Shown in pieces: positions 1,789 to 44,712 of a stretch of 64,000 nt of DNA (position 1 is its first letter; every line of letters begins with the position of its first letter). A program made the translations under genes and the position numbers. Source of the stretch: a virus; the IMG/VR virus record IMGVR_UViG_3300034374_008984, positions 1-64,000 of that record. One strand, given 5' to 3'. The notes under the pieces are model-generated. The model saw nothing but the letters and a program-made list of their open reading frames with translations, was not told the DNA's origin and did no database searches.

Positions 1789-3030
1789 ATGAGTAGTTGT
1801 CCTTTCATATTCGGTGCAAGAAGTTCTGGAGCAGGCGGCTCTGTTTCCCTCGCAGTATCGGACATCTCACCTAATGCGGGTGACACAGTTACCTTAACGG
1901 CAACTCCATCAGGTTTTACACCAACAAGCTACCAATTCTTACTATTCAATGGCAGTGTAACGCTTCTTTCTCAACAATCGGGAAACACATACAACTGGAC
2001 GGTTAATGTGCCTGCTGGTAATTACTCTATCTATGTACTTGCCACGGATGGCGCTACGGATGTGTTCGATTCGCAGGATGTTACCGTAAACGCATTGTAT
2101 CTTCTTGGTTTATACCCTACCGACTGCATCACGGATTTTGCACCTTTCAGATTGCTTGGATCCTTTACAGGTAGGATTATGGAGGTGAGGAGGTTGGTTG
2201 GGTCAACTACGACAGCGGTTGAAATAGGATTTGACGGTGACTACGTGACACTGGACAGTCCTGTGTTATCTGTTACCGTTGGCAGCTCATCGGCTACCAC
2301 ATTAGGTTCATTTGTGAACGCATCGGGATACCCTAATCAAGACAGCTTATCGGGAGCTCAGTCGGCATTTGTGGTGCGTGGATATAGGCAACTAAACGGT
2401 GCGCTTGCATGGGAACAAACAGTAGCGGCTAATCAGCCAAGGCTTGTGGATAGCGGAACACTTGACGTTTTGGGTGCGTTCGGATGCCTGAGATTCCTCG
2501 GAAATCAGTGGCAGGATTACGGACTGATAAGTGGTTTAAACAAACCAGCGAACTACTCTATTCTGTCCGTTGCCTCGTTCGATAGCACGGGAGCGATGGG
2601 ACTGTATGGGTCGCGGCCTGCGGGCAGTGGTCAAACACCGTTCAGTTACGGTCATATATGGAAGCAGCCATCGGGTAGTAGTACGATAACAACGCTATAT
2701 GGTGATGGTATAAACCAGCGAATCGCGACAACATTGACAAATCCAATTGTGGTAACGTCTATGCAGCTTTTTGAAGACTACAAGTCATCGGGGGTCTTAG
2801 ATTCTGATCTATACGTTGACGGTAGCGGACCTATACCCTTTTCAGGCACGGGCAGCGCGCTGAATGTTTTTGGTACGGCAACAAGGATGCTGTTCGGAAG
2901 GTTTGGCGATTCATCGGGCAACATTTTAACGGGCCGACAGCTCATGTTCGTGGTCTATGAGGGCAACAAGTCAGCCGACCGATTAGGCATGAAGAATGCG
3001 ATAAACTCAATACTTGGCACGTCATGGTAA
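1789..3030 (+). CDS. Putative tail fibre / receptor-binding protein (Ig-like plus ConA/LamG-like domains)
   Basis: N-terminal Ig-like segment (GDTVTLTATP...GNYSIYV); QTVAANQPRLV motif and lectin-like C-terminus. Confidence 0.6.
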   Translation: MSSCPFIFGARSSGAGGSVSLAVSDISPNAGDTVTLTATPSGFTPTSYQFLLFNGSVTLLSQQSGNTYNWTVNVPAGNYSIYVLATDGATDVFDSQDVTVNALYLLGLYPTDCITDFAPFRLLGSFTGRIMEVRRLVGSTTTAVEIGFDGDYVTLDSPVLSVTVGSSSATTLGSFVNASGYPNQDSLSGAQSAFVVRGYRQLNGALAWEQTVAANQPRLVDSGTLDVLGAFGCLRFLGNQWQDYGLISGLNKPANYSILSVASFDSTGAMGLYGSRPAGSGQTPFSYGHIWKQPSGSSTITTLYGDGINQRIATTLTNPIVVTSMQLFEDYKSSGVLDSDLYVDGSGPIPFSGTGSALNVFGTATRMLFGRFGDSSGNILTGRQLMFVVYEGNKSADRLGMKNAINSILGTSW

Positions 3031-3239
3031 AGCTGGGATACCTATACGACAACGAGGCCGCTGCACTTTCGGCACGTGACCTGTGCGACAATTACTACGG
3101 ATGTCCGAACCATGCAGCCCAGCATTGGGTCAGTGTGCAGCAGTGGGGGGATAAGTGGGCTATTATCTACAACAACACGCTGCCAATTGTTCTTGGCGCA
3201 CCTATTGTTTTACCTGAATTGGAAAATGAACATGAATAA
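3024..3239 (+). CDS. Small hypothetical protein, possible fibre chaperone
   Basis: 71 aa overlapping the end of the fibre gene. Confidence 0.6.
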   Translation: MVKLGYLYDNEAAALSARDLCDNYYGCPNHAAQHWVSVQQWGDKWAIIYNNTLPIVLGAPIVLPELENEHE

Positions 3240-26895: not shown

Positions 26896-27554
26896 ACATG
26901 AACTTCGATGATTTCCTCCGCAAGGAGGCCGACAAGAGTGGATTCCAATGGAATGACGTTTCAGAGTGGACTCCCGAACAGCTCGCCGCAATGTGGCACA
27001 AGGCGGGGCAATCCATCGTGGGGCCGTCCTACAAAGATGTTGACCCGAACCTCACACAAAACCTCGTGAAGTACCTCCTCCGTGATGAGTCCTTCGATGG
27101 GAACCTTGACAGGGGCATTCTGATAATAGGCAACAACGGGACAGGCAAGACCATCTACATGAAGATCCTACTCATGCTCCTCACCTATCTGCACTCCAAG
27201 CGGACGCCCTCTTACTCAGGGAAACAGATAGAGGCCAATATGAGGCTTCCAGAGGATGAGCAGGGAAGAATAGACGTGCAAAAGGCACTCCTTGCCCCGA
27301 CATTCTACTTCGATGATCTCGGGGAGGAGCTTGACAGGGTGATGGTATATGGTACCTATGTGGAACTCGGAAAGGATGTCCTGACACAGCGCTACGAGGA
27401 GTTCACCTCCAAGGGCTCCCTTACATTCGCCACCTCGAACCTCAACATGAAACAGATAGAGGACAAGTACGGGTATCGAGTGGGAAGCCGCATGCACGAG
27501 ATGTTCAATGTGTTCATCCGCAAGGGGGAGGACATGAGAAAAGGATTTGTGTGA
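26892..27554 (+). CDS. DnaC/IstB-like AAA+ helicase loader
   Basis: Walker A GNNGTGKT, Walker B FYFDDLG, TSNL, YG.R..SR..EM. Confidence 0.85.
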   Translation: MNMNFDDFLRKEADKSGFQWNDVSEWTPEQLAAMWHKAGQSIVGPSYKDVDPNLTQNLVKYLLRDESFDGNLDRGILIIGNNGTGKTIYMKILLMLLTYLHSKRTPSYSGKQIEANMRLPEDEQGRIDVQKALLAPTFYFDDLGEELDRVMVYGTYVELGKDVLTQRYEEFTSKGSLTFATSNLNMKQIEDKYGYRVGSRMHEMFNVFIRKGEDMRKGFV

Positions 27555-28171
27555 TGAGGGTGCTAAATCTGTATGCCGGTCTTGGAGGAAATAGAAAAGA
27601 TTGGCAAGGAGTAAAGGTGACGGCTGTTGAAATGGAGCAGCAGATAGCTGACGCATACAAGCGCCTGTATCCTGATGACGAAGTAATAGTGGGAGACGCT
27701 CATAAATACCTGAAAGAAAACTTCCGACACTATGACTTCATTTGGAGCTCGCCACCGTGTCAAACTCATAGCAGAATGATGAAAGCCACCCGGCACGATG
27801 TCGCAGATTACCCCGATATGAAACTCTACCAGGAAATCATATTTCTTCAACACTTTTTCAAAGGAAAGTGGGTTGTGGAGAATGTTAAGCCCTACTATGA
27901 ACCGCTTATCCGTCCAACCGTCAAAATGGGCAGGCACTACTTTTGGGCAAACTTCACTATTTGGCCCATTAAGATAGGCTCTCCAAAAAAGTTCATTACA
28001 GCCGGGACTACCGAAGAAACACAGGCATTGAAGGATTGGCTGGGCATTCAGTATGATGGCAACATCTACTACAAGAACAATCATTGCCCGGGACAAGTGT
28101 TACGAAACTGCGTCCACCCAAAAGTTGGAAACCACATACTCAATGAATCAACCCGAAACGGACTCTTCTAA
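27554..28171 (+). CDS. Compact C5-cytosine DNA methyltransferase
   Basis: LNLYAGLGG, SPPCQ and VENV motifs. Confidence 0.85.
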   Translation: MRVLNLYAGLGGNRKDWQGVKVTAVEMEQQIADAYKRLYPDDEVIVGDAHKYLKENFRHYDFIWSSPPCQTHSRMMKATRHDVADYPDMKLYQEIIFLQHFFKGKWVVENVKPYYEPLIRPTVKMGRHYFWANFTIWPIKIGSPKKFITAGTTEETQALKDWLGIQYDGNIYYKNNHCPGQVLRNCVHPKVGNHILNESTRNGLF

Positions 28172-29738: not shown

Positions 29739-30194
29739 ATGGCAAAAACAGCAGTAGTGAAAATCGAAGAGAACACCGAGGACACGTCCCTTCAGGGCAT
29801 CCTCAATAGTTTGTCCCACAACGAGCGTCTTGATTGGCTCGAAACGAATGCCTTCTCCGTGAAGGATGAGGAGTATCATGCCCCGCTCTCTGCGGAGGAA
29901 CTTGACGAGGTGAAGGGTTTTATCACTCAGCAGAACATCAAGTTGCAGGAATTGGAAGACAAGAAAAATAGGTTCATGGAGGAGCTCAACGCTGAGTTGA
30001 AGCCCGCCAAAGAGAAACTTGAAGTGGCCGTTCGCGAGGCGCGCTCAAATGAGCGTCAGGGCTTTGGTAAGGTGTACTACGTGCCGAACCACGAAGAGGG
30101 TATCACTTACAAGGTCACGGAAGGGAATCTTATCGTAGGCAGCCGCCCGATGCGTTCCGAGGAGCGTCAGATGAATCTCCTTGCCAAGGTGTAA
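29739..30194 (+). CDS. Hypothetical protein
   Basis: ORF after promoter box TACATTTG (29698). Confidence 0.75.
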   Translation: MAKTAVVKIEENTEDTSLQGILNSLSHNERLDWLETNAFSVKDEEYHAPLSAEELDEVKGFITQQNIKLQELEDKKNRFMEELNAELKPAKEKLEVAVREARSNERQGFGKVYYVPNHEEGITYKVTEGNLIVGSRPMRSEERQMNLLAKV

Positions 30195-31418: not shown

Positions 31419-33434
31419 ATGAACAGTAACGAGTACGAGATAGAGACAAGCCAGCCCGACCCCGAATCGGGAGCCTCTGAGCACGGCAAGGAGGCAACGT
31501 CCATCCCTAAGCTGATCCTCCCTGCACCGATACCCGTCAGGCCACCCAAGTATTCTCGGAATCAGTACGAGGAGGAACACAAGGAGTGGCTCAGAAAGAA
31601 GCGAGGGGAATCGGCATGGAGAACTGAGCAAAGGAGGAGATGGAAAGAGGGGTTTGCGGGATTGACGGGAATCCACTACTTCTACATTACCCAGATGCGG
31701 ATAAAGGACGCGGAGGGAAATCCCATCCGGCCCATGTGGAGGGATGTGGACGAGGAAATCTTCCGAGAGTTCGAGCTGTGCTACAAGGACGAAATCGACT
31801 TCTACGTGTTCAAGAGACGTGAGGTGGGACTTTCATCCGTGTTCGGAGGTGCGATTCCATTGTACCTCCTCATCATGTACCCCAACAGCACCTCGCTAAT
31901 GACCTCCGCTGACCTTACCCGCGTGAAGGACCTCATGGCGAACAAGCTCATTGCCCAGCACAGCTACCTTGAGGATTGGGTAAAGCCGAAAAGGAAGACC
32001 TACGACCCGCAGAAAGGGGCCACGTTCTTGGAGATTGACGAGGACGGCAACGAGACAGGGAACATGGCCGAGATTGTTTGCAGGCAGACATCGCAGGATA
32101 AGAAGGACGTGACCAACTTGGAGGGCGCAAGGGCCAAGTATGTGTTCCTTGACGAGCTCTTCCTTCACCCGTACCCCGAGGAGGTCCGCTCGTCAGCCCA
32201 ATCGTGTCTCATGTCGGGCATGGAAAGAGTTGGGATCATGGTGGCGGGAGGTAGCGCGGGTGCCGTGTCGAGGCTCGGACTGAAACAGGCAAGGGAAATA
32301 TCTCAGAAGGCATTGACGGGAAGCCTGAGAATGCTGTTTCTGTCGGGGGCGAAGGGGATAACAGCCGCAACGATACGAGATGAGAACGGAAAGAAGATAG
32401 GCACGGAGAACTTCTGCATAAACGGATGGTCGGACGTGGCGCGGGCAGAGGCATACATTAAATGGCAGAGAGCGATACTTGACCTGAGCCCCAACAAACA
32501 GGAACTCATCTCATTCACCAAGAGGTATCCGCTCACGCTCGAAGAGGTACTCACGTCAGACGATTTCGGGGTGATTCCAAGAGACATTGCCGAGCAGATA
32601 CCCGCACAGGAACTCGAACTAAGAAGCAACCCAAGAAACCTCAAACGGGTCACGATAACATTCGAGAACGGGAAGCCAACTTTCAGGAACGACAGCAGAG
32701 GCGCGTGGCTCATCCTTGAACACCCGGTCGCTGGAGAGTACTACTGGATGGGAACGGACGCGATTCCCATGATGGCAAAGAAGGCTGAGGCCACAATAAA
32801 CCCCGATGGAACGGAGCGGTCGATGCACTGCTCGGCCATTAAACGGAAAGGCACCAACAGCTACGTTGCCATATATCTCCGCAGGACATCCGATGTGGAC
32901 CTCATATTCGATGAGATGTTCGCAGCTCAACAGGCATATAACAACTGCCAGAACATGATTGAGAGAAACTCCGCAGGACTCATCTACGATAGATACTCCC
33001 GTAGCGGAAACCTCAAATACCTCGCGTATCAACCAGAAGCGTTCGGCTCCAAGGGATTCAAGAAGGGAACCGTCAGGGGAGTACACAAGGACGGGCACAA
33101 CTCGGAAAGGATCTACAACGCAGGGTTCGACTACTTCAGGGACAACATGCGCCTCGTTGACTTCCCTATCATCCTCGAACAGCTCAGAGTGTTCGGCTCA
33201 GAGAACACGGACGTGATTGACGCGATAATGATGTGCGAGGTGTTCCATAAGTATCAGGAGATCTCAGCAGGGGAACGCGCTGTCAGGGCCATGAAGCAGA
33301 CCTACAAATACCAACCCTACATCACATACGAGAACGGGAACCGCGTAGTGAGACACAAGAAGGTGGCCGTCAATTCGGCAGGTCAAGTAATAGGCCCCCA
33401 TCAAGGAATGACACCACTGACAGGATTATTGTGA
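31419..33434 (+). CDS. terL: Terminase large subunit
   Basis: KRREVGLS (Walker A variant), VFLDE (Walker B), nuclease GTD ... IERN ... DVIDA; upstream of the portal; promoter box at 31383. Confidence 0.88.
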   Translation: MNSNEYEIETSQPDPESGASEHGKEATSIPKLILPAPIPVRPPKYSRNQYEEEHKEWLRKKRGESAWRTEQRRRWKEGFAGLTGIHYFYITQMRIKDAEGNPIRPMWRDVDEEIFREFELCYKDEIDFYVFKRREVGLSSVFGGAIPLYLLIMYPNSTSLMTSADLTRVKDLMANKLIAQHSYLEDWVKPKRKTYDPQKGATFLEIDEDGNETGNMAEIVCRQTSQDKKDVTNLEGARAKYVFLDELFLHPYPEEVRSSAQSCLMSGMERVGIMVAGGSAGAVSRLGLKQAREISQKALTGSLRMLFLSGAKGITAATIRDENGKKIGTENFCINGWSDVARAEAYIKWQRAILDLSPNKQELISFTKRYPLTLEEVLTSDDFGVIPRDIAEQIPAQELELRSNPRNLKRVTITFENGKPTFRNDSRGAWLILEHPVAGEYYWMGTDAIPMMAKKAEATINPDGTERSMHCSAIKRKGTNSYVAIYLRRTSDVDLIFDEMFAAQQAYNNCQNMIERNSAGLIYDRYSRSGNLKYLAYQPEAFGSKGFKKGTVRGVHKDGHNSERIYNAGFDYFRDNMRLVDFPIILEQLRVFGSENTDVIDAIMMCEVFHKYQEISAGERAVRAMKQTYKYQPYITYENGNRVVRHKKVAVNSAGQVIGPHQGMTPLTGLL

Positions 33435-33486: not shown

Positions 33487-33873
33487 ATGATCCAATCCAC
33501 CTCCTGCACGGTGCATCCCTCAATAAGCCCCTCCGAGAATTATCTATCGGTGTTCCTCGGTGTGCATCAGTACAAAGACCAGTTCGGGGCTTATCCAGTG
33601 GCGGTCGTGAAGGACAAGAACGGGAGACTCATGCAGTGCAAGCTGTCGGCAGTGGAGGTAGAGGTTCCTTGGGGGATACCTTGCAGGGTCATCTACAAGG
33701 ACACCGACTACACGACACTGTTCTTGGGCACGTTCGACTTCTCCGATGGAGAGAAATCCTATCCGGTGGCCGTTATCAGGAACCAGGATGGGAGGTTGCA
33801 GGCAATCCGTTTGGAGGCCGTTCACTTTCTCTCCTCCGTGTATCTCTTTGAAAGAAAAAAGAATGAACCATGA
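33487..33873 (+). CDS. Hypothetical protein with a tandemly duplicated domain
   Basis: FLG..Y....YPVAVV.D.NGRL pattern occurs twice. Confidence 0.7.
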   Translation: MIQSTSCTVHPSISPSENYLSVFLGVHQYKDQFGAYPVAVVKDKNGRLMQCKLSAVEVEVPWGIPCRVIYKDTDYTTLFLGTFDFSDGEKSYPVAVIRNQDGRLQAIRLEAVHFLSSVYLFERKKNEP

Positions 33874-34052
33874 ACCTCCCCGACACCCCATACAAGATAG
33901 GCTCCACCCGAATCCTCAACGAGGGCAAGAAGTGGTTTCTTTGCAGGGCCACCCCTCCGATACACAAAGGGTTCTGCTATGTGGTCTGGAAGAAAATCAA
34001 AGAAGTGCCCAATCAAACAGGAAAGTCGCAGCTTGAGTTTCAGTTTGGGTAA
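33870..34052 (+). CDS. Small hypothetical protein
   Basis: 60 aa; stop codon overlaps the TAAC of the first attC-like arm. Confidence 0.55.
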   Translation: MNLPDTPYKIGSTRILNEGKKWFLCRATPPIHKGFCYVVWKKIKEVPNQTGKSQLEFQFG

Positions 34053-34135
34053 CGTATTGGTATATGGTTAGTGCCGTGTAAATAGCACAGACCTTTGAAT
34101 TAAGAACAGAAGTAATAATTAAATATTTTTAGAGC

Positions 34136-34828
34136 GTGGGCAAAATAAATAACTTATATACAGCAGAAGCATTATCATTTATGAAGGAAATGAATGATAA
34201 CTCTGTTGACATAATAGTAACATCACCACCGTATAATTTAATGGGGCAATACTCTTGTAAATCACAAATGAACAGAAGTTTTACAAGTAAAAGGCTTGAA
34301 GATTGGTATGATGATAAAATGGATGAAAAAGAATACCAACAATGGCAAAAAGAATGTGTTAGGGAAATGGTTAGAATATGTAAAGGAAGTGTTTTTTACG
34401 TGCATCAAGTTAGATATGCTTGGGGTAGAAAAAACGAGTTTTACCACCCTATACATTGGTTAAATGAATTTGTTATATGGTCTGAAATAATTTGGAATAG
34501 AGGAAATGGTATAAGTGCTGCAAAAAGACCAACAATGGCTGACCAAAGGATTTATATGATTGGTAAACCTAAAGTTTGGAATAAGCCAAATTGCACAAGT
34601 GTTTGGGATATACCTTCTGTTAGAAATTCTAATCACGTTTGTCCATTTCCTGATGAATTAGTAGAAAGATGTTTAAATATGTGTAGTAATGAAGGCGATA
34701 TTGTTTTTGACCCATTTGTAGGTATAGGAACAACAGCAAGAGTTGCTAAAAAAATGAATAGAAAATATATTGGTGTTGATATAAATGAAAATTATATAAA
34801 CGAAGCTAAAACCAAATTGCTGACGTAG
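34136..34828 (+). CDS. Amino-DNA methyltransferase, beta class, probably N4-C
   Basis: TSPPY before DPFVGIGTT; HVCPFP. Confidence 0.88.
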   Translation: MGKINNLYTAEALSFMKEMNDNSVDIIVTSPPYNLMGQYSCKSQMNRSFTSKRLEDWYDDKMDEKEYQQWQKECVREMVRICKGSVFYVHQVRYAWGRKNEFYHPIHWLNEFVIWSEIIWNRGNGISAAKRPTMADQRIYMIGKPKVWNKPNCTSVWDIPSVRNSNHVCPFPDELVERCLNMCSNEGDIVFDPFVGIGTTARVAKKMNRKYIGVDINENYINEAKTKLLT

Positions 34829-35001
34829 GAAACAAAAGAGCGTGGGCAAAAAATATTTAATTATGGGTAAAAAGGCACAAACGATTGAATTAAGCACGAA
34901 CTTAGGCATTAACTATATACCGTGTTGTAAAATCGTTTTAATGTTTTACAACGTTTTCGGGCTTGGCGAAGGCGGGGATTTAACCACAAAAGTTTAATAG
35001 A

Positions 35002-35715
35002 ATGACAGAAGATAATTTACATACAAAAGTTGATTTGGAAAACGGAAGCCCCGCTTTTGCCAAACCCGTGTTATACGCTGGGGCGGGTATCAAGGCAAAC
35101 ATTTCAATTTATAACGAGGACTGTTTGCAAGCATTAAAGGCAATGGCAGACAAACAATTTGATTTAGCCATAGTTGACCCACCTTACGGAATAGGAGCAG
35201 AAAACCACGCAGGCAATAAAGATAATGGATGGACACAATGGGCTAAAAAAGATTGGGATAAGGCAATACCAACGGCTGAATATTGGGAGCAACTTTTTAG
35301 GGTAAGCAAAAATCAAATTGTTTGGGGTGCAAATTATATGACGGAATACTTACCACCTAAAATGGGTTGGATTGTTTGGGATAAAGGGCAAAGGGATTTT
35401 AGCCTTGCTGACGGAGAACTTGCTTGGACTTCATTTGATAAAGCAATGAGGATATTTACTTACGCAAGAGCAAAAGCATTAAAGGAAGGTAAAATACATC
35501 CAACGCAAAAGCCGACTGATTTATACAAATGGCTTTTAGATAAGTATGCAAAGCAAGGCGATAAAATCCTTGACACCCATTTAGGAAGTGGAAGTATTGC
35601 CATTGCCTGCTGGGATATGGGTTACGACTTAACAGCCTATGAAGTTGATAAGGAGTATTACGATAATGCTTGCAAACGATTAGAAACGCATAAGTCTCAA
35701 TTAACGCTATGGTAG
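35002..35715 (+). CDS. N6-adenine DNA methyltransferase, beta class
   Basis: DPPY, HPTQKP, DTHLGSGS. Confidence 0.9.
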   Translation: MTEDNLHTKVDLENGSPAFAKPVLYAGAGIKANISIYNEDCLQALKAMADKQFDLAIVDPPYGIGAENHAGNKDNGWTQWAKKDWDKAIPTAEYWEQLFRVSKNQIVWGANYMTEYLPPKMGWIVWDKGQRDFSLADGELAWTSFDKAMRIFTYARAKALKEGKIHPTQKPTDLYKWLLDKYAKQGDKILDTHLGSGSIAIACWDMGYDLTAYEVDKEYYDNACKRLETHKSQLTLW

Positions 35716-35757
35716 CCCTTGCGTATAACTCTCCGATACACGAAAGTTTACTATGCA

Positions 35758-35988
35758 ATGAAACACACAGTGTCAACAACATACGATTTAGTGTGGCAGA
35801 TTAGTGGCGCGGAGCATTACAAGTTTACTTCTGATGGCATCTGCATAAATACCCGAACAGGAAAACGAATAAAGAAGACCCTTTGTGGCCGTTCTGTCGG
35901 GTATTGCATTTCGGGGAAATTCGTGTCGACCACTACGCTAAGGACACGACTTCAGCGAATCCCGAAAGAGATTTCCTGCCCGTTCTGA
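35758..35988 (+). CDS. Small basic protein, weakly NUMOD4-like
   Basis: YKFTSDG..INTRTGKRIK. Confidence 0.45.
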   Translation: MKHTVSTTYDLVWQISGAEHYKFTSDGICINTRTGKRIKKTLCGRSVGYCISGKFVSTTTLRTRLQRIPKEISCPF

Positions 35989-36047: not shown

Positions 36048-38261
36048 ATGGACAACTACAAGCTACTTGACACGGAAGGCCCATCGCATCAGATGGAGAC
36101 CCACCGCCCTAATGTCGTAGGCACGAAACGGGCCCTGAAAAAAGAACACAAGGGGATGCACGGCATGATTGCCAAGTACCTCCGCTTCATGGTCACGCAG
36201 TGGAACCTCGACTACAATACCCCTCTCTACTCCACGAGGAATCCCGGCCACATCCTTCACAGGTCTCCCGTAGAGGAGATGCTCCTCAATTACAAGTACT
36301 ATCAGTCCCAGCAGGATGTTAACAGCTATGCCTACCTGACAGAAACCGCAGAGGGGGAGGAGCGTCCAGCCAAATTTACCCATGGTTCAGAGATCTATCA
36401 GGTGGTGCAGCACATGGTAGGCCCCGTTGTGAAGCACTTCGCAGGGACAACCATCACAATCGAATCCCTTGATCCCTCCGTGCAGTCCAAGCGGCAGGCC
36501 AAGGTCGCAATGCTTCAAGCCAAGAAACTCCTGCCAGACATCTTCAAGAGGTTCTCCGAAATGGGCGCCACGTTCATGCCTGAAGGAGCAACCGAGGCAA
36601 AGGACATGGACGGGGCTATTCAGGAGGCGCTGAGAAAACCAGCCCACAAGGTCGAGCGGTACGGCATGGACATCCTTACTCATGTCAACAACACCAACAG
36701 CGTAAAGGACTACATGCCCAAGCGTTTCAAGGATGTCGTCATTGGAAGGCATTGCGCAACGCACAGAACAGTATCCAATGGAAGAATCGTCCTCGAAAAG
36801 ATTGACCCTTGGAACCTCATCTTCGACAGAGACAACTCAGATGACGACTACAACAGGTACGCCCTGTTCAAGGGATTCATCAGTTGGAAATCCCACGAGG
36901 AGATCATGCAGGCGTACACCCTCGGAAGCGATGCCGAGGAAGAACTCAAGAAGCTCTTCGACAGCAACAGGAGTGCAACACTGCCGGGACTCAACGGAGT
37001 GATGGGTAATGTCCCCCAATCTGGATTCTCTTGGCTGGAATCGGACGGACCCCGTAGAATAGCCTGTGTGACAGGATACTTCATCGCCACGATAAAGGAA
37101 GATGACGGGACATCCTATCAGACCATCTACGAGGGGACTTTGATAGGAAACACGGTGCTTGTCAACTTCGGGGAATCCAACAACATCAGCTACGACATAG
37201 CCCGACCTGAGTGGCCGGTCATGCCCATCCATATCTACAGCCCCGACACGATACTCGGAACGAACGTCTGTCCCGTGGACCGGTTCAGAGAAATGCAGGA
37301 GGACTTGGATGCGTTCAAGTACAAGATTCGGGAACACATCGACAGAGACCTCGGAAAGGGGTATGTGTTCTATGCGGATACAGCCGTTCCGAAAGACATC
37401 ATTGAAGACCTCAAGAACTTCGGTGTAACAGTCATCAACAGGGCCGACCCCGAGGAACCCATCATCAACAACAACAGGATGGTGGACACAGTGGACATGA
37501 CCCTTGACCCTAACGTGGCACAGTACATAGCCCTGCGAAAGGAGTTCAAAGCGGACATGGACAATGTGGTATCCCAATCGAACATCACGAGAGGGATGCA
37601 GCAGACGTACATCGGTGGAGGTACACAGCAGGCCACCGTTGCACAGGCCAGCAACGGCACCGTTTCTCTCATGTCGGGATTCTTCCAACACTTTGCCTTC
37701 ATAGAGCAGGACATATTAAATACCGCCAAGACAATGCTCTTGGAGCCCAAGAACAGGGAAGAGGCGGAACTCATTCTCTCTGACGCAAGCGCAGATTTCT
37801 GGGAGGCCATGCAAGACCTCAATGTCATCGACATGCAGGTGCGTATCGAGATGGAGGACTTCATTGACGAGGAGCGCAGGGCAAGGTATCAGCAATATGC
37901 CCTCGCAATGGCACAGAACGCGAGAGAGACAGGGTTCACAATGCTCGATGCCATCAACATCGAGAACGCCCGCACAAGTCAGGAGTTGATGACCAAACTG
38001 AAAGAGTCCCTCGAACTGAAAGAACTGAAAGCCGAGCGCATGAGACAAGAAGACATGGCTATGCAGCAGCAGATGCAACAGATGCAGATGCAGCAGCAAG
38101 GTCAGATGTTCCAACTCGAAGAACAGAACAAGGCTCTTCGAGACCAGATCCGCAACGCGCCCAAGCACGAGGCCAATCAGATCAAACGCGAGGAGATGAA
38201 CATGTCAAGGGACATGGTATTCGCCTCCGAAGCAGGAATGCCAGGAACAGAAGTGGAATAA
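36048..38261 (+). CDS. Portal protein (crAss-like)
   Basis: 737 aa between TerL and scaffold/capsid; helical; Q/M-rich coiled C-terminus; DMTLD..V.QYI motif. Confidence 0.8.
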   Translation: MDNYKLLDTEGPSHQMETHRPNVVGTKRALKKEHKGMHGMIAKYLRFMVTQWNLDYNTPLYSTRNPGHILHRSPVEEMLLNYKYYQSQQDVNSYAYLTETAEGEERPAKFTHGSEIYQVVQHMVGPVVKHFAGTTITIESLDPSVQSKRQAKVAMLQAKKLLPDIFKRFSEMGATFMPEGATEAKDMDGAIQEALRKPAHKVERYGMDILTHVNNTNSVKDYMPKRFKDVVIGRHCATHRTVSNGRIVLEKIDPWNLIFDRDNSDDDYNRYALFKGFISWKSHEEIMQAYTLGSDAEEELKKLFDSNRSATLPGLNGVMGNVPQSGFSWLESDGPRRIACVTGYFIATIKEDDGTSYQTIYEGTLIGNTVLVNFGESNNISYDIARPEWPVMPIHIYSPDTILGTNVCPVDRFREMQEDLDAFKYKIREHIDRDLGKGYVFYADTAVPKDIIEDLKNFGVTVINRADPEEPIINNNRMVDTVDMTLDPNVAQYIALRKEFKADMDNVVSQSNITRGMQQTYIGGGTQQATVAQASNGTVSLMSGFFQHFAFIEQDILNTAKTMLLEPKNREEAELILSDASADFWEAMQDLNVIDMQVRIEMEDFIDEERRARYQQYALAMAQNARETGFTMLDAINIENARTSQELMTKLKESLELKELKAERMRQEDMAMQQQMQQMQMQQQGQMFQLEEQNKALRDQIRNAPKHEANQIKREEMNMSRDMVFASEAGMPGTEVE

Positions 38262-44097: not shown

Positions 44098-44712
44098 TCA
44101 GAACAGTGTGAGTTGGGATTTGAACTCGCGGTATCTTTTTTCTTGTGCCGCCCAATAGTCAGGGTCAAGTTCTGCACCGATGAAATCCAACCCAGCGCGA
44201 TGGGCTGCAATGCGGGATGAACCGCTGCCGACAAAAGGGTCTAAGATGGTGTCGCCTTCCTTGGCGTAGTGGTGTAGAATCCAATCATATAAAGCAGTCG
44301 GCTTTTGTGTAGGATGGATTTTTCCGTTTGTGTAAGCCTCAACGCGGCTCATTCTAAATGCCTTACTTGAACTACCAAAAGATGTCCAAGCTAATTCAAA
44401 GTCAGCACCGCTAAACTCTTGCACCTTATCCCAAATTAAGTTGCATCTTGTAGGTGGCAGCGCAAAATAGTTGCCACCCCAAATTATTTGGTTTTTTGAA
44501 ACCCTAAACATTTCCAAAATAACCTCGTCAGATGGCAACACGTCCCAATCAACATGCCTAATATCTCTGACAAACTTTGATCCTCGTTTTTGTCCGCTCA
44601 ATAAACTGTGACCTATGCCATACGGAGGGTCGGCTATACAAAGACTGAAATACTTATCAGGATACCCCCGCATCAATTCCATGCAGTCCATTAAATGCAC
44701 CTCGTTTTTCAT
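44098..44712 (-). CDS. N6-adenine DNA methyltransferase, beta class
   Basis: DPPY, HPTQKP, DPFVGSGS; paralog of 35002-35715. Confidence 0.9.
   Translation of the reverse strand: MKNEVHLMDCMELMRGYPDKYFSLCIADPPYGIGHSLLSGQKRGSKFVRDIRHVDWDVLPSDEVILEMFRVSKNQIIWGGNYFALPPTRCNLIWDKVQEFSGADFELAWTSFGSSSKAFRMSRVEAYTNGKIHPTQKPTALYDWILHHYAKEGDTILDPFVGSGSSRIAAHRAGLDFIGAELDPDYWAAQEKRYREFKSQLTLF

Follow-up and report, generated by a model that had tools for sequence, protein, structure and literature searches.

Organization of the array

The DNA analyzed here is a stretch of 64,000 nucleotides (positions 1 to 64,000 of IMG/VR virus record IMGVR_UViG_3300034374_008984; hereafter the window) from a phage record that is complete, with 73,651 bp and direct terminal repeats. 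The subject of this work is a putative cassette array of two units at 34051–35729, which carries two attC-like hairpin sites and two DNA methyltransferase genes and is positioned between the genes for the terminase large subunit (31419–33434; phrog_6681, E 4e-15) and the portal (36048–38261; phrog_6547, E 1e-26). The G+C content of the locus is low, 0.29–0.41 over 34000–35800 (the stretch from 34053 to ~35730), versus ~0.5 in the flanks. An earlier reading of the letters alone (the sequence-only reading) had described two imperfect palindromes here, with extra unpaired bases in their left arms, at 34051–34075/34905–34926 and 34950–34977/35049–35072. Both palindromes are present, as are the complementary ends that it had reported for the segments between them and the overlap of the upstream gene's stop codon with TAAC: the array begins at a TAAC whose TAA (34050–34052) terminates a small backbone open reading frame (ORF) of 60 aa with no family (33870–34052, plus strand).

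Site 1 opens on the plus strand with a 5′ part (34051–34075) consisting of the AAC core (34051–34053), a G with a 4-nt unpaired spacer and the left stem arm, and closes with a 3′ part (34905–34926, plus strand) made up of the right stem arm and the GTT core (34924–34926). Between the cores the arms span 34054–34075 and 34905–34923. A repeat search found a stretch of them (34059–34075/34905–34921) to be 17 nt in length and 88% complementary, with AAC and GTT bracketing it. The reading of this palindrome as a site had to be amended in one respect, which is that it encloses a whole gene: its terminal loop is expanded to 829 nt (34076–34904, plus strand) and contains all of M1 (34181–34828, plus strand), an N6/N4 DNA methyltransferase gene of ~30% G+C that encodes 215 aa from the ATG at 34181 (PF01555, E 3.9e-37; phrog_67) and whose product has a 98% identical counterpart in the loci L085 and L086. 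Within the loop M1 is flanked by 20-nt direct repeats (34131–34150/34837–34856, 90% identical) and also by a perfect 16-nt inverted repeat (34115–34130/34849–34864), and one metagenome contig joins 34130 to 34830 without the M1 gene, a weak joint with only 26 letters on its side. These loop-internal repeats and the contig joint suggest that M1 entered the loop of site 1 by an event other than cassette exchange.

Behind site 1 lies a minimal, or empty, cassette body (34924–34952, plus strand), composed of GTT plus 6 nt, an 11-nt loop, TCGTTTTAATG, and 6 complementary nt plus AAC; GTTGTAAAA..TTTTACAAC at these positions form a perfect 9-bp hairpin. The designation of this segment as an empty cassette, which had been made from the sequence-only reading, held up. 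In L085 and L086 an identical loop is closed by a compensatory stem, AGCAAA/TTTGCT where the window has GTAAAA/TTTTAC. Short sites with TCGTTTTAATG as their loop are also present in L008, in L013 and in Polaribacter phage P12002L.

Site 2 (34950–35072, plus strand) is a compact attC-like element of AAC, G plus a TTTT spacer, stem, a 71-nt A-rich loop, return arm and TGTT; its arms (34950–34977/35049–35072) form a stem of 4 bp and 15 bp with a C/A mismatch between them. The left arms of both sites of the window have extra unpaired bases, namely a 4–5 nt spacer and one C. The second methyltransferase gene, M2 (35002–35715, plus strand; N6/N4 type, 237 aa; PF01555, E 2e-14; phrog_67, E 1.7e-41), has its start codon at 35002 inside the loop of site 2, with the first ~23 codons formed by the loop and the right arm. 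Together with its upstream site, M2 has 71% nucleotide identity to gp005 of the cultured Flavobacterium phage hemulen6-1 (hemulen; MN812208) and the site upstream of it. The ends of this cassette, GTTATACGC (35070) and GCGTATAAC (35721–35729), are part of arms of 15 nt (35070–35084/35715–35729) that are 87% complementary, and the end box at 35718–35729 (plus strand) is complementary to 35070–35081. The array terminates at 35729 with GCGTATAAC and has no further site behind it. Both arrays with visible ends, those of the window and of hemulen, start with TAAC and a site and end with a body and AAC, which indicates that the usual unit is a site with the body that follows it, with exchange inside AAC. 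In the window the two units would accordingly run from 34054 to 34952 and from 34953 to 35729.

A family of covarying sites

In hemulen, three consecutive methyltransferase genes and a small ORF each lie behind a hairpin of the same type, the stem sequences differing, for a total of four sites; the locus L014 carries 11. Our starting collection was ~50 such hairpins, found with a simple hairpin script in 83 loci that had been retrieved using M2. An alignment of 32 elements had 22 consensus pairs in three helices, 16 of them with compensatory changes, and the covariance model built from this alignment (R1) gave 54 matches in 17 of the 83 sources. Among the 54 matches, 93.0% of cells were paired, versus 62.6% in shuffles, and the covariation score was 0.651, versus 0.149 for shuffled alignments (0/500 reached it) and 0.10–0.12 with slid partners; these values are to be read with the knowledge that the 54-match alignment was fitted to R1 and is hence biased toward the structure. 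Site 2 was the only compact element in the phage genome (R1 score 113.7 bits, E 3e-20). An Rfam scan, in a database without an attC family, gave only four chance-level matches (E ≥ 3.3).

In its general form the site starts with AAC, G and 4–5 nt of unpaired spacer. The stem that follows, ~22 bp in length, is variable but covaries and includes a conserved C/A mismatch; the loop, ~70 nt and A-rich, leads to the return arm and TGTT. The AAC core was found in 71/73 and 46/46 elements and the GTT core in 70/73 and 46/46, at a median AAC-to-GTT length of 123–124 nt, and the core consensus is TAACG/TGTTA. The likeness to integron attC sites drawn in the sequence-only reading held for the AAC and GTT cores, the hairpin, the spacer and the complementary ends, but not for the classical 7-mers: RYYYAAC fits 1/73 and 5/46 elements and GTTRRRY 2/73 and 4/46. 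The consensus has six unpaired columns on the AAC arm versus one on the GTT arm, and the conserved unpaired C (the base of the C/A mismatch in site 2) is on the AAC arm of the strand with the main breakpoint, described below. With DNA parameters, the plus-strand arms were more stable in 57/62 and 44/45 elements, mostly through one invariant G·T. A count of G·T versus A·C on RNAalifold pairs was dropped as a strand indicator, being biased by the way in which the pairs are derived.

The loops of the sites share a short motif just past the left arm, (A/T)GCAC(A/T)AA or AACCAC(A/T)AAA, in phage and chromosomal copies alike (for example at L113 1255–1320 and L107 5420–5500). The expanded loop of site 1 has two copies of it (34080–34126 and 34870–34916), together with a leader-type ATG at 34863. 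The motif could be a promoter element or a protein-binding site.

Cassette ends, reading frames and cargo

In 49 distinct cassettes the two ends were compared over 9 variable bases each, those behind GTT at one end and those ahead of the next AAC at the other. At least seven of the nine positions were complementary in 36/49 cassettes (mean 6.45), versus 38 of 2352 mismatched control pairs (mean 3.42), and the complementary boxes extend to 12 nt. The two boxes that flank one site scored 3.78, which is the level of the controls, and the complementarity thus belongs to the cassette and not to the site. Complementarity of this kind is the signature that would be expected, from sequence, if the unit circularizes: with the 9 nt after GTT paired to the 9 nt before the terminal AAC of the unit, the excised circle would carry one continuous hairpin.

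Each cassette of the phage set contains one ORF, and the sites and the longest ORF shared a strand in 53 of 53 cassettes. With every ORF of the set on the plus strand, the gene comes downstream of its site, and in 23 of the 53 cassettes the ORF starts inside the site; in 11, the TAA of the TAAC core is the stop codon. Phage cassettes are as such an inverted class, in which the A-rich loop of the upstream site supplies the leader and often the start codon. Their cargo included 13 N6/N4 methyltransferases among the 53 ORFs, a share that is inflated by the use of a methyltransferase (M2) to fish for the loci, and one C5 methyltransferase. Single cases were found of a dATP/dGTP diphosphohydrolase N-terminal domain, a PAPS-reductase fold, YopX, DUF551, HNH and AP2, and the rest had no Pfam family.

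In the chromosomal arrays described below, the ORF was on the strand opposite to the model plus strand in 39 of 44 cassettes, and end complementarity was mostly 7–8 of 9. Cargo there comprised AAA_15/AAA_21, OLD-type TOPRIM, nucleotidyltransferases, Gp49/HigB-like proteins and many DUFs, which is cargo of the toxin–antitoxin and defence type that is typical of chromosomal integrons.

Breakpoints and mobility

L085 has two copies and L086 one copy of window positions 34051–34946, at 95.6% identity and all with unrelated flanks, and the homology begins exactly at 34050/34051, at AAC. Comparable boundaries were found in other pairs. The 3146 bp that lead to AACGT in L011 and L012 are 100% identical, and past them the two loci differ by a complete unit; a unit common to hemulen and L078 is homologous from TAAC to AAC, after which there is backbone in one and a further site in the other; M2 is shared with L004 at 94.7% nucleotide identity, stopping exactly at 35729; and site 2 is shared with L020 at 97.7% identity, with a different gene behind GTT. 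Among the internal BLAST ends in the array spans (n = 384, from pairs that are not independent), 49 were no more than 8 nt from AAC (null 1.5%) and 24 were as close to GTT (null 1.3%). Changes of gene content, which it had been suggested to look for at G|TT junctions, thus map to the AAC/GTT cores; the main natural breakpoint in these comparisons is the AAC at the 5′ end of each hairpin on the phage coding strand, and GTT is used about half as often. In the gene direction of the chromosomal arrays, this AAC breakpoint of the model plus strand is the classical G|TT position downstream of each gene. Read in the chromosomal direction, the site, the order of the genes and the crossover therefore all look integron-like, and the arm that bears the unpaired bases is the one remaining difference.

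Contigs from other freshwater metagenome runs contain parts of the array with other flanks, with breaks at 34050/51, 34925 and 34946: contigs from runs X16 and X17 start at 34051 and 34050, respectively, record 31 of X7 begins at 34925, and X17 has loose ends at 34923 and 34954. In X7 the depth of the backbone contigs was ~8.5 versus 54 for the contig with the M1 unit. Such differences in depth, and the parts of the array to which no contig gives cover, are only suggestive. Joints inside M2 (35189–35570) were set aside, since they look like other methyltransferase genes in the samples.

In L085 the two copies of the M1 unit (243–1142 and 2174–3074) are ~1.93 kb apart, with the same next site behind each, which looks like a tandem duplication of two cassettes.

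Recombinases are absent from the phages and adjacent to host arrays

The sequence-only reading had reported no tyrosine recombinase in the window, and a search with PF00589 extended this to the whole 73,651 bp of the phage and to all five phage or viral records searched: the window's phage (G000), the complete virus G003, hemulen and the viral fragments G001 and G002. Serine recombinases (PF00239) and Y1 transposases (PF01797) were absent from all three of the window's phage, G003 and hemulen. In an all-against-all BLASTP of six site-bearing records (ORFs of at least 60 aa), only methyltransferases were common with the window's phage.

Run across phages and hosts, as had been suggested, R1 also matched, in addition to the 17 sources given above, 58 of 151 sampled Flavobacteriales genomes at E ≤ 1e-6, as well as the isolate genome of Cruoricaptor ignavus. 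The chromosomal arrays that were read have at least 24 sites in 20 kb (G011), 12 (G056) and 11 (G039). A tyrosine recombinase of 347 aa was first met 1.9 kb from two sites, next to nadC, on a contig of a Flavobacterium metagenome-assembled genome (MAG). Sites were present in 22 of 23 recombinase-positive genomes versus 36 of 128 negative ones (Fisher p = 6e-10). Among the 150 of 276 R1 matches that were listed, and to which all of the following distances refer, an ortholog of this recombinase was less than 5 kb (0.47–4.9 kb) from a site in at least 13 of the 23 positive genomes: at 0.47–0.86 kb in G100, G011, G112, G039 and G139 (a pseudogene in G139), at 1.3–1.9 kb in G118, G004 and G056, at 4.7 kb in G094, and at 1.5–4.9 kb in G135, G091, G076 and G145, in which the recombinase is more distant in sequence (41–49% identity). 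In G011, G056, G039 and L113 the recombinase is at the upstream end of the array and co-directional with the cassette ORFs. The strand arrangement of recombinase to site is the opposite in G135, G091, G076 and G145, and they would have the classical divergent layout, provided that the cassette ORFs are oriented as in the other arrays.

The best named family for this recombinase is NF040815 (XerA/'integron integrase'), with 216–228 bits at a cut-off of 220. Against the integron integrase model TIGR02249 it reached 203–213 bits at a cut-off of 265, in two stretches that skip model positions ~181–237. When aligned to VchIntIA (2a3v), the recombinase has 21 residues where IntI4 has 63 (~42 fewer), with no such gap versus XerA; the missing stretch is what we take to be the additional domain specific to IntI. 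The host recombinase also has an extra N-terminal region of ~70 aa.

Several side observations were made on the host sequences. The recombinase adjacent to the array of G139 (C6:23906–24514; array of at least six sites) is a pseudogene with three in-frame stops and without its N-terminal part, and this array may therefore be frozen. A 29-bit recombinase match near sites in G006:C236 was dropped because no ORF of at least 60 aa lies behind it. In Cruoricaptor ignavus, a prophage-like region has solitary sites whose strand is opposite to that of the genes beside them (L107 = G005 C19, 5402–5542, minus strand), and one such site lies between ORFs of 550 aa and 741 aa, unannotated but terminase-like and portal-like by size and order, as in the window. 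A MAG labelled Erysipelotrichaceae (G008) had 20 R1 matches spread over the small contigs C86, C122, C146, C92, C27, C79, C7 and C77; these are probably mis-binned phage or Flavobacteriales DNA, the alternative being a host outside Bacteroidota.

A probable integron-like system of Flavobacteriales that extends to their phages

In bacteria, the classic means of capturing genes is the integron. We consider it quite probable that the segment 34051–35729 of the window is a two-unit cassette array without an integrase, belonging to an integron-like system that is common to Flavobacteriales and their phages. The claim that attC-like sites bound the cassettes was upheld in the form of a conserved, covarying site family with cassette-specific complementary ends. 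The sequence-only reading had further placed the system in Bacteroidota phages and proposed that it is mobilized in trans. The first of these statements stands insofar as the sites are present in phages, but the platform is bacterial and not phage-specific, and the phage copy is an integrase-less cluster. The second is supported by the lack of a recombinase in the phages and by host arrays of the same sites beside a Xer/IntI-like recombinase.

The mechanism that we propose is as follows. A recombinase of the host, supplied in trans during infection, would excise and insert units by strand exchange inside the AAC core, probably acting on folded single strands as integron integrases do, and the circle of an excised unit would have its paired 9-nt ends joined in the continuous hairpin described above. 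The phage would in this way have acquired cassettes with inverted ORFs that could express themselves from the hairpin loop, and the methyltransferase cargo would protect phage DNA from host restriction.

A number of observations weigh against this interpretation. The recombinase was assigned as the catalyst from proximity and co-occurrence only, with recombination itself deduced from sequence comparisons; in addition, sites are found in 36 genomes in which the recombinase is missing at E ≤ 1e-70, and one genome with the recombinase is devoid of sites. As many as 262 of the 384 BLAST ends lie elsewhere than at the cores, and breaks occur at both AAC and GTT, such that the breakpoints do not establish a single fixed crossover point. 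No close relative of the phage backbone was found, the terminase search returning one relative (59% identity, on a 5.6-kb contig) and the portal search none, and an uninterrupted (empty) insertion locus was not seen. With regard to the sites, the 829-nt loop of site 1 keeps R1 from detecting it, only site 2 being matched in the phage genome, and R1 gave no matches in P12002L at E ≤ 1. We know of no precedent for a gene within the terminal loop of a site, as is the case for M1. End complementarity was poor in 13 of the 49 cassettes, and the inflated share of methyltransferases noted above has to be taken into account. Beyond the invariant G·T, a position-defined census found GT and AC mismatches to be about equal, with no strand skew. 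Lastly, the extra and mismatched bases sit on the AAC arm, whereas in the bottom strands of classical attC sites, as described in PMC5027507, they are near L″ on the other arm.

A more inclusive interpretation is that Flavobacteriales have a widespread and unrecognized integron-like platform, composed of a Xer-type recombinase without the IntI insertion and arrays of attC-like hairpins of ~125 nt, and that phages share its cassette pool, with inverted-ORF, loop-translated counter-defence cassettes on the phage side and toxin–antitoxin and defence cassettes on the host side. We regard the case for this broader claim as evenly balanced.

Alternative explanations

The array could instead be an ordinary attC cluster with no integrase (CALIN), made and moved by a canonical host IntI as published for other phages. 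The attC-like architecture and the complementary cassette ends are what such a cluster would have, and in PMC9892861 IntI1 is reported to have recombined a site of P12002L that resembles the short variants in the arrays studied here. However, searches with TIGR02249 gave no match above the cut-off in 10 of 10 genomes or records, and in five of those genomes the best match to the model was the array-adjacent recombinase itself, in which 21 residues stand in place of the 63 of IntI4 in the alignment to VchIntIA. The classical 7-mers fit few elements (RYYYAAC 1/73 and 5/46, GTTRRRY 2/73 and 4/46), and natural breaks are more common at the AAC core, which in the phages is upstream of the gene. Surveys of Bacteroidetes (PMC9024848) give only In0 elements and one complete integron. 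We consider this explanation unlikely.

It could also be argued that the hairpins function at the level of RNA as expression elements (in mRNA processing or stability, or as ribosome landing sites) and that the cassettes shuffle by homologous or microhomology recombination. Such shuffling, by homologous recombination, has been proposed for the promoter/stem-loop regulatory cassettes of T4-type phages; like the sites described here, these are repeated intergenic stem-loops with expression signals that flank accessory genes in plastic regions of phage genomes, but the T4 cassettes are not known to have cassette-specific end complementarity or recombinase-linked host arrays. Phage sites are always co-oriented with their genes, 23/53 ORFs start in the loop and 11/53 stop at TAAC, and the coding-strand fold is slightly more stable, all as expected for RNA elements. 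In 39 of 44 chromosomal cassettes, however, the ORF is opposite to the site and the fold is therefore not tied to the transcript, and a translated mRNA offers little reason for complementarity between cassette ends that are separated by 150–1800 nt. The arrays are also tightly linked to a tyrosine recombinase, and the common cores are only 4–5 nt. Expression elements as the whole explanation are quite unlikely in our assessment, but a dual role of the site, as a DNA site and a leader, may apply.

Another possibility is that the units insert 3′ of TAAC as IS200/IS605-type single-strand transposons or as some other hairpin-guided element. This would account for units that begin right after TAAC and end in TAAC, for a subterminal imperfect hairpin and for the fact that no target duplication was seen. 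We judge this very unlikely, given that no Y1 transposase (PF01797) was found in 3/3 phage genomes, that the gene consistently linked to the arrays in hosts is a tyrosine recombinase and that each unit has a single hairpin instead of a hairpin at either end. It is scarcely credible that two methyltransferase genes acquired horizontally are merely surrounded by chance palindromes or ordinary terminators. In favour of this, the single-stranded DNA fold of site 2 alone is only modestly above shuffles (z = −1.88; 10/200 shuffles fold as well); against it, there are hundreds of homologous, covarying copies, exact homology boundaries and complementary cassette ends.

Relationship to known systems

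Having weighed these alternatives, we return to the integron-like cassette array and its relationship to published systems. According to Qi et al. 2023 (PMC9892861), a screen of 10,705 phage genomes found 17 attC clusters without an integrase, one of them in Polaribacter phage P12002L with two methyltransferases, and IntI1 recombined one short-loop site of that phage in E. coli. In the P12002L genome we found short hairpins (AACGG, stem, the loop TCGTTTTAATG, stem, TGTTA) behind its methyltransferase genes, at 30036 and 30936 on the minus strand, and hairpins of this type are also inside the arrays L008, L013 and L086; the site tested with IntI1 may be one of those in P12002L. As a phage attC cluster with methyltransferases, the array of the window is a further member of this published kind. 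The features in common are the imperfect hairpin, the AAC/GTT cores, the unpaired spacer and a variable terminal loop, as well as one co-oriented ORF per cassette, complementary ends, a phage without an integrase and methyltransferase cargo. The family in the window differs in its sites of 123–124 nt with a ~70-nt loop that often holds the start codon of the next ORF, in the poor fit to RYYYAAC/GTTRRRY, in complementary boxes of up to 12 nt, in the mismatched base on the AAC arm and in the main breakpoint at the core upstream of the phage gene.

The array goes beyond that kind through its family of long-loop sites and the wide occurrence of that family, through the platform in Flavobacteriales with a recombinase other than IntI, and through phage cassettes that are inverted and initiate in the loop. 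For Bacteroidetes, the IntegronFinder 2.0 paper (PMC9024848) lists only In0 elements and one complete integron (Salinibacter), and a 2024 preprint names Bacteroidota among the clades earlier found to be without integrons. In the full-text literature, most subscription journals excepted, no description was found of Flavobacteriales cassette arrays, the long-loop site family or inverted phage cassettes. With 11 to at least 24 sites and one ORF per cassette, the host arrays resemble sedentary chromosomal integrons, including the 'inverted integrase' group of PMC4889954, and so do their toxin–antitoxin and defence cargo and the tyrosine recombinase at the upstream end of the array. They differ in having a recombinase without the IntI insertion and in their place in the order Flavobacteriales, in a phylum for which surveys report almost no integrons. 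At least two attC sites in close proximity with no integrase nearby, the arrangement that defines a CALIN, are found in the window, provided that its sites count as attC. An adjacent IntI with the IntI-specific domain, as in a complete integron, was found in neither the phage nor the host arrays searched.

In phages of the CTX type, a host Xer recombinase integrates folded single-stranded phage DNA at the chromosomal dif site. The likeness extends to the use of a host recombinase of the Xer family, a hairpin that mimics a two-arm core site and mobile DNA without a recombinase of its own, but in CTX it is a whole phage that enters dif, whereas the Flavobacteriales system deals in gene-sized cassettes and arrays.

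The two cassettes of the window thus led to a site family that occurs in 58/151 sampled Flavobacteriales genomes as well as in Flavobacterium phages in culture and numerous contigs of uncultured viruses. If the link to the recombinase is functional, then a second lineage of enzymes, or a deep sister branch, exists for integron-like capture, and lytic phages without a recombinase can trade anti-restriction genes as self-expressing cassettes by way of a host enzyme. The rules of attC recognition (the arm with the unpaired bases, the core that is cut and the limit on loop size) would then be testable on a natural variant. If the more inclusive interpretation is true, cassette exchange serves both sides of the phage–host arms race. 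A site with its gene also constitutes a compact, portable expression cassette for Bacteroidota genetics.

Other features of the phage genome

Downstream of the array, the portal gene is preceded by a second small backbone ORF of 76 aa with no family (35758–35988, plus strand). A 19-nt direct repeat (CTCCGATACAC.., 84% identical) is located at 33955–33973, inside the ORF upstream of the array, and at 35731–35749, two bases past the last AAC of the array. It may be a remnant of the insertion site or derive from small ORFs that are paralogous.

The phage has further DNA methyltransferase genes at 27551–28171 (plus strand) and 44098–44712 (minus strand), both with the G+C content of the backbone and neither with an attC-like site around it. 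One of the two is a C5-type ORF that is 44% identical to hemulen gp006, and the other is a paralogue of M2 with 49% identity to hemulen gp005.

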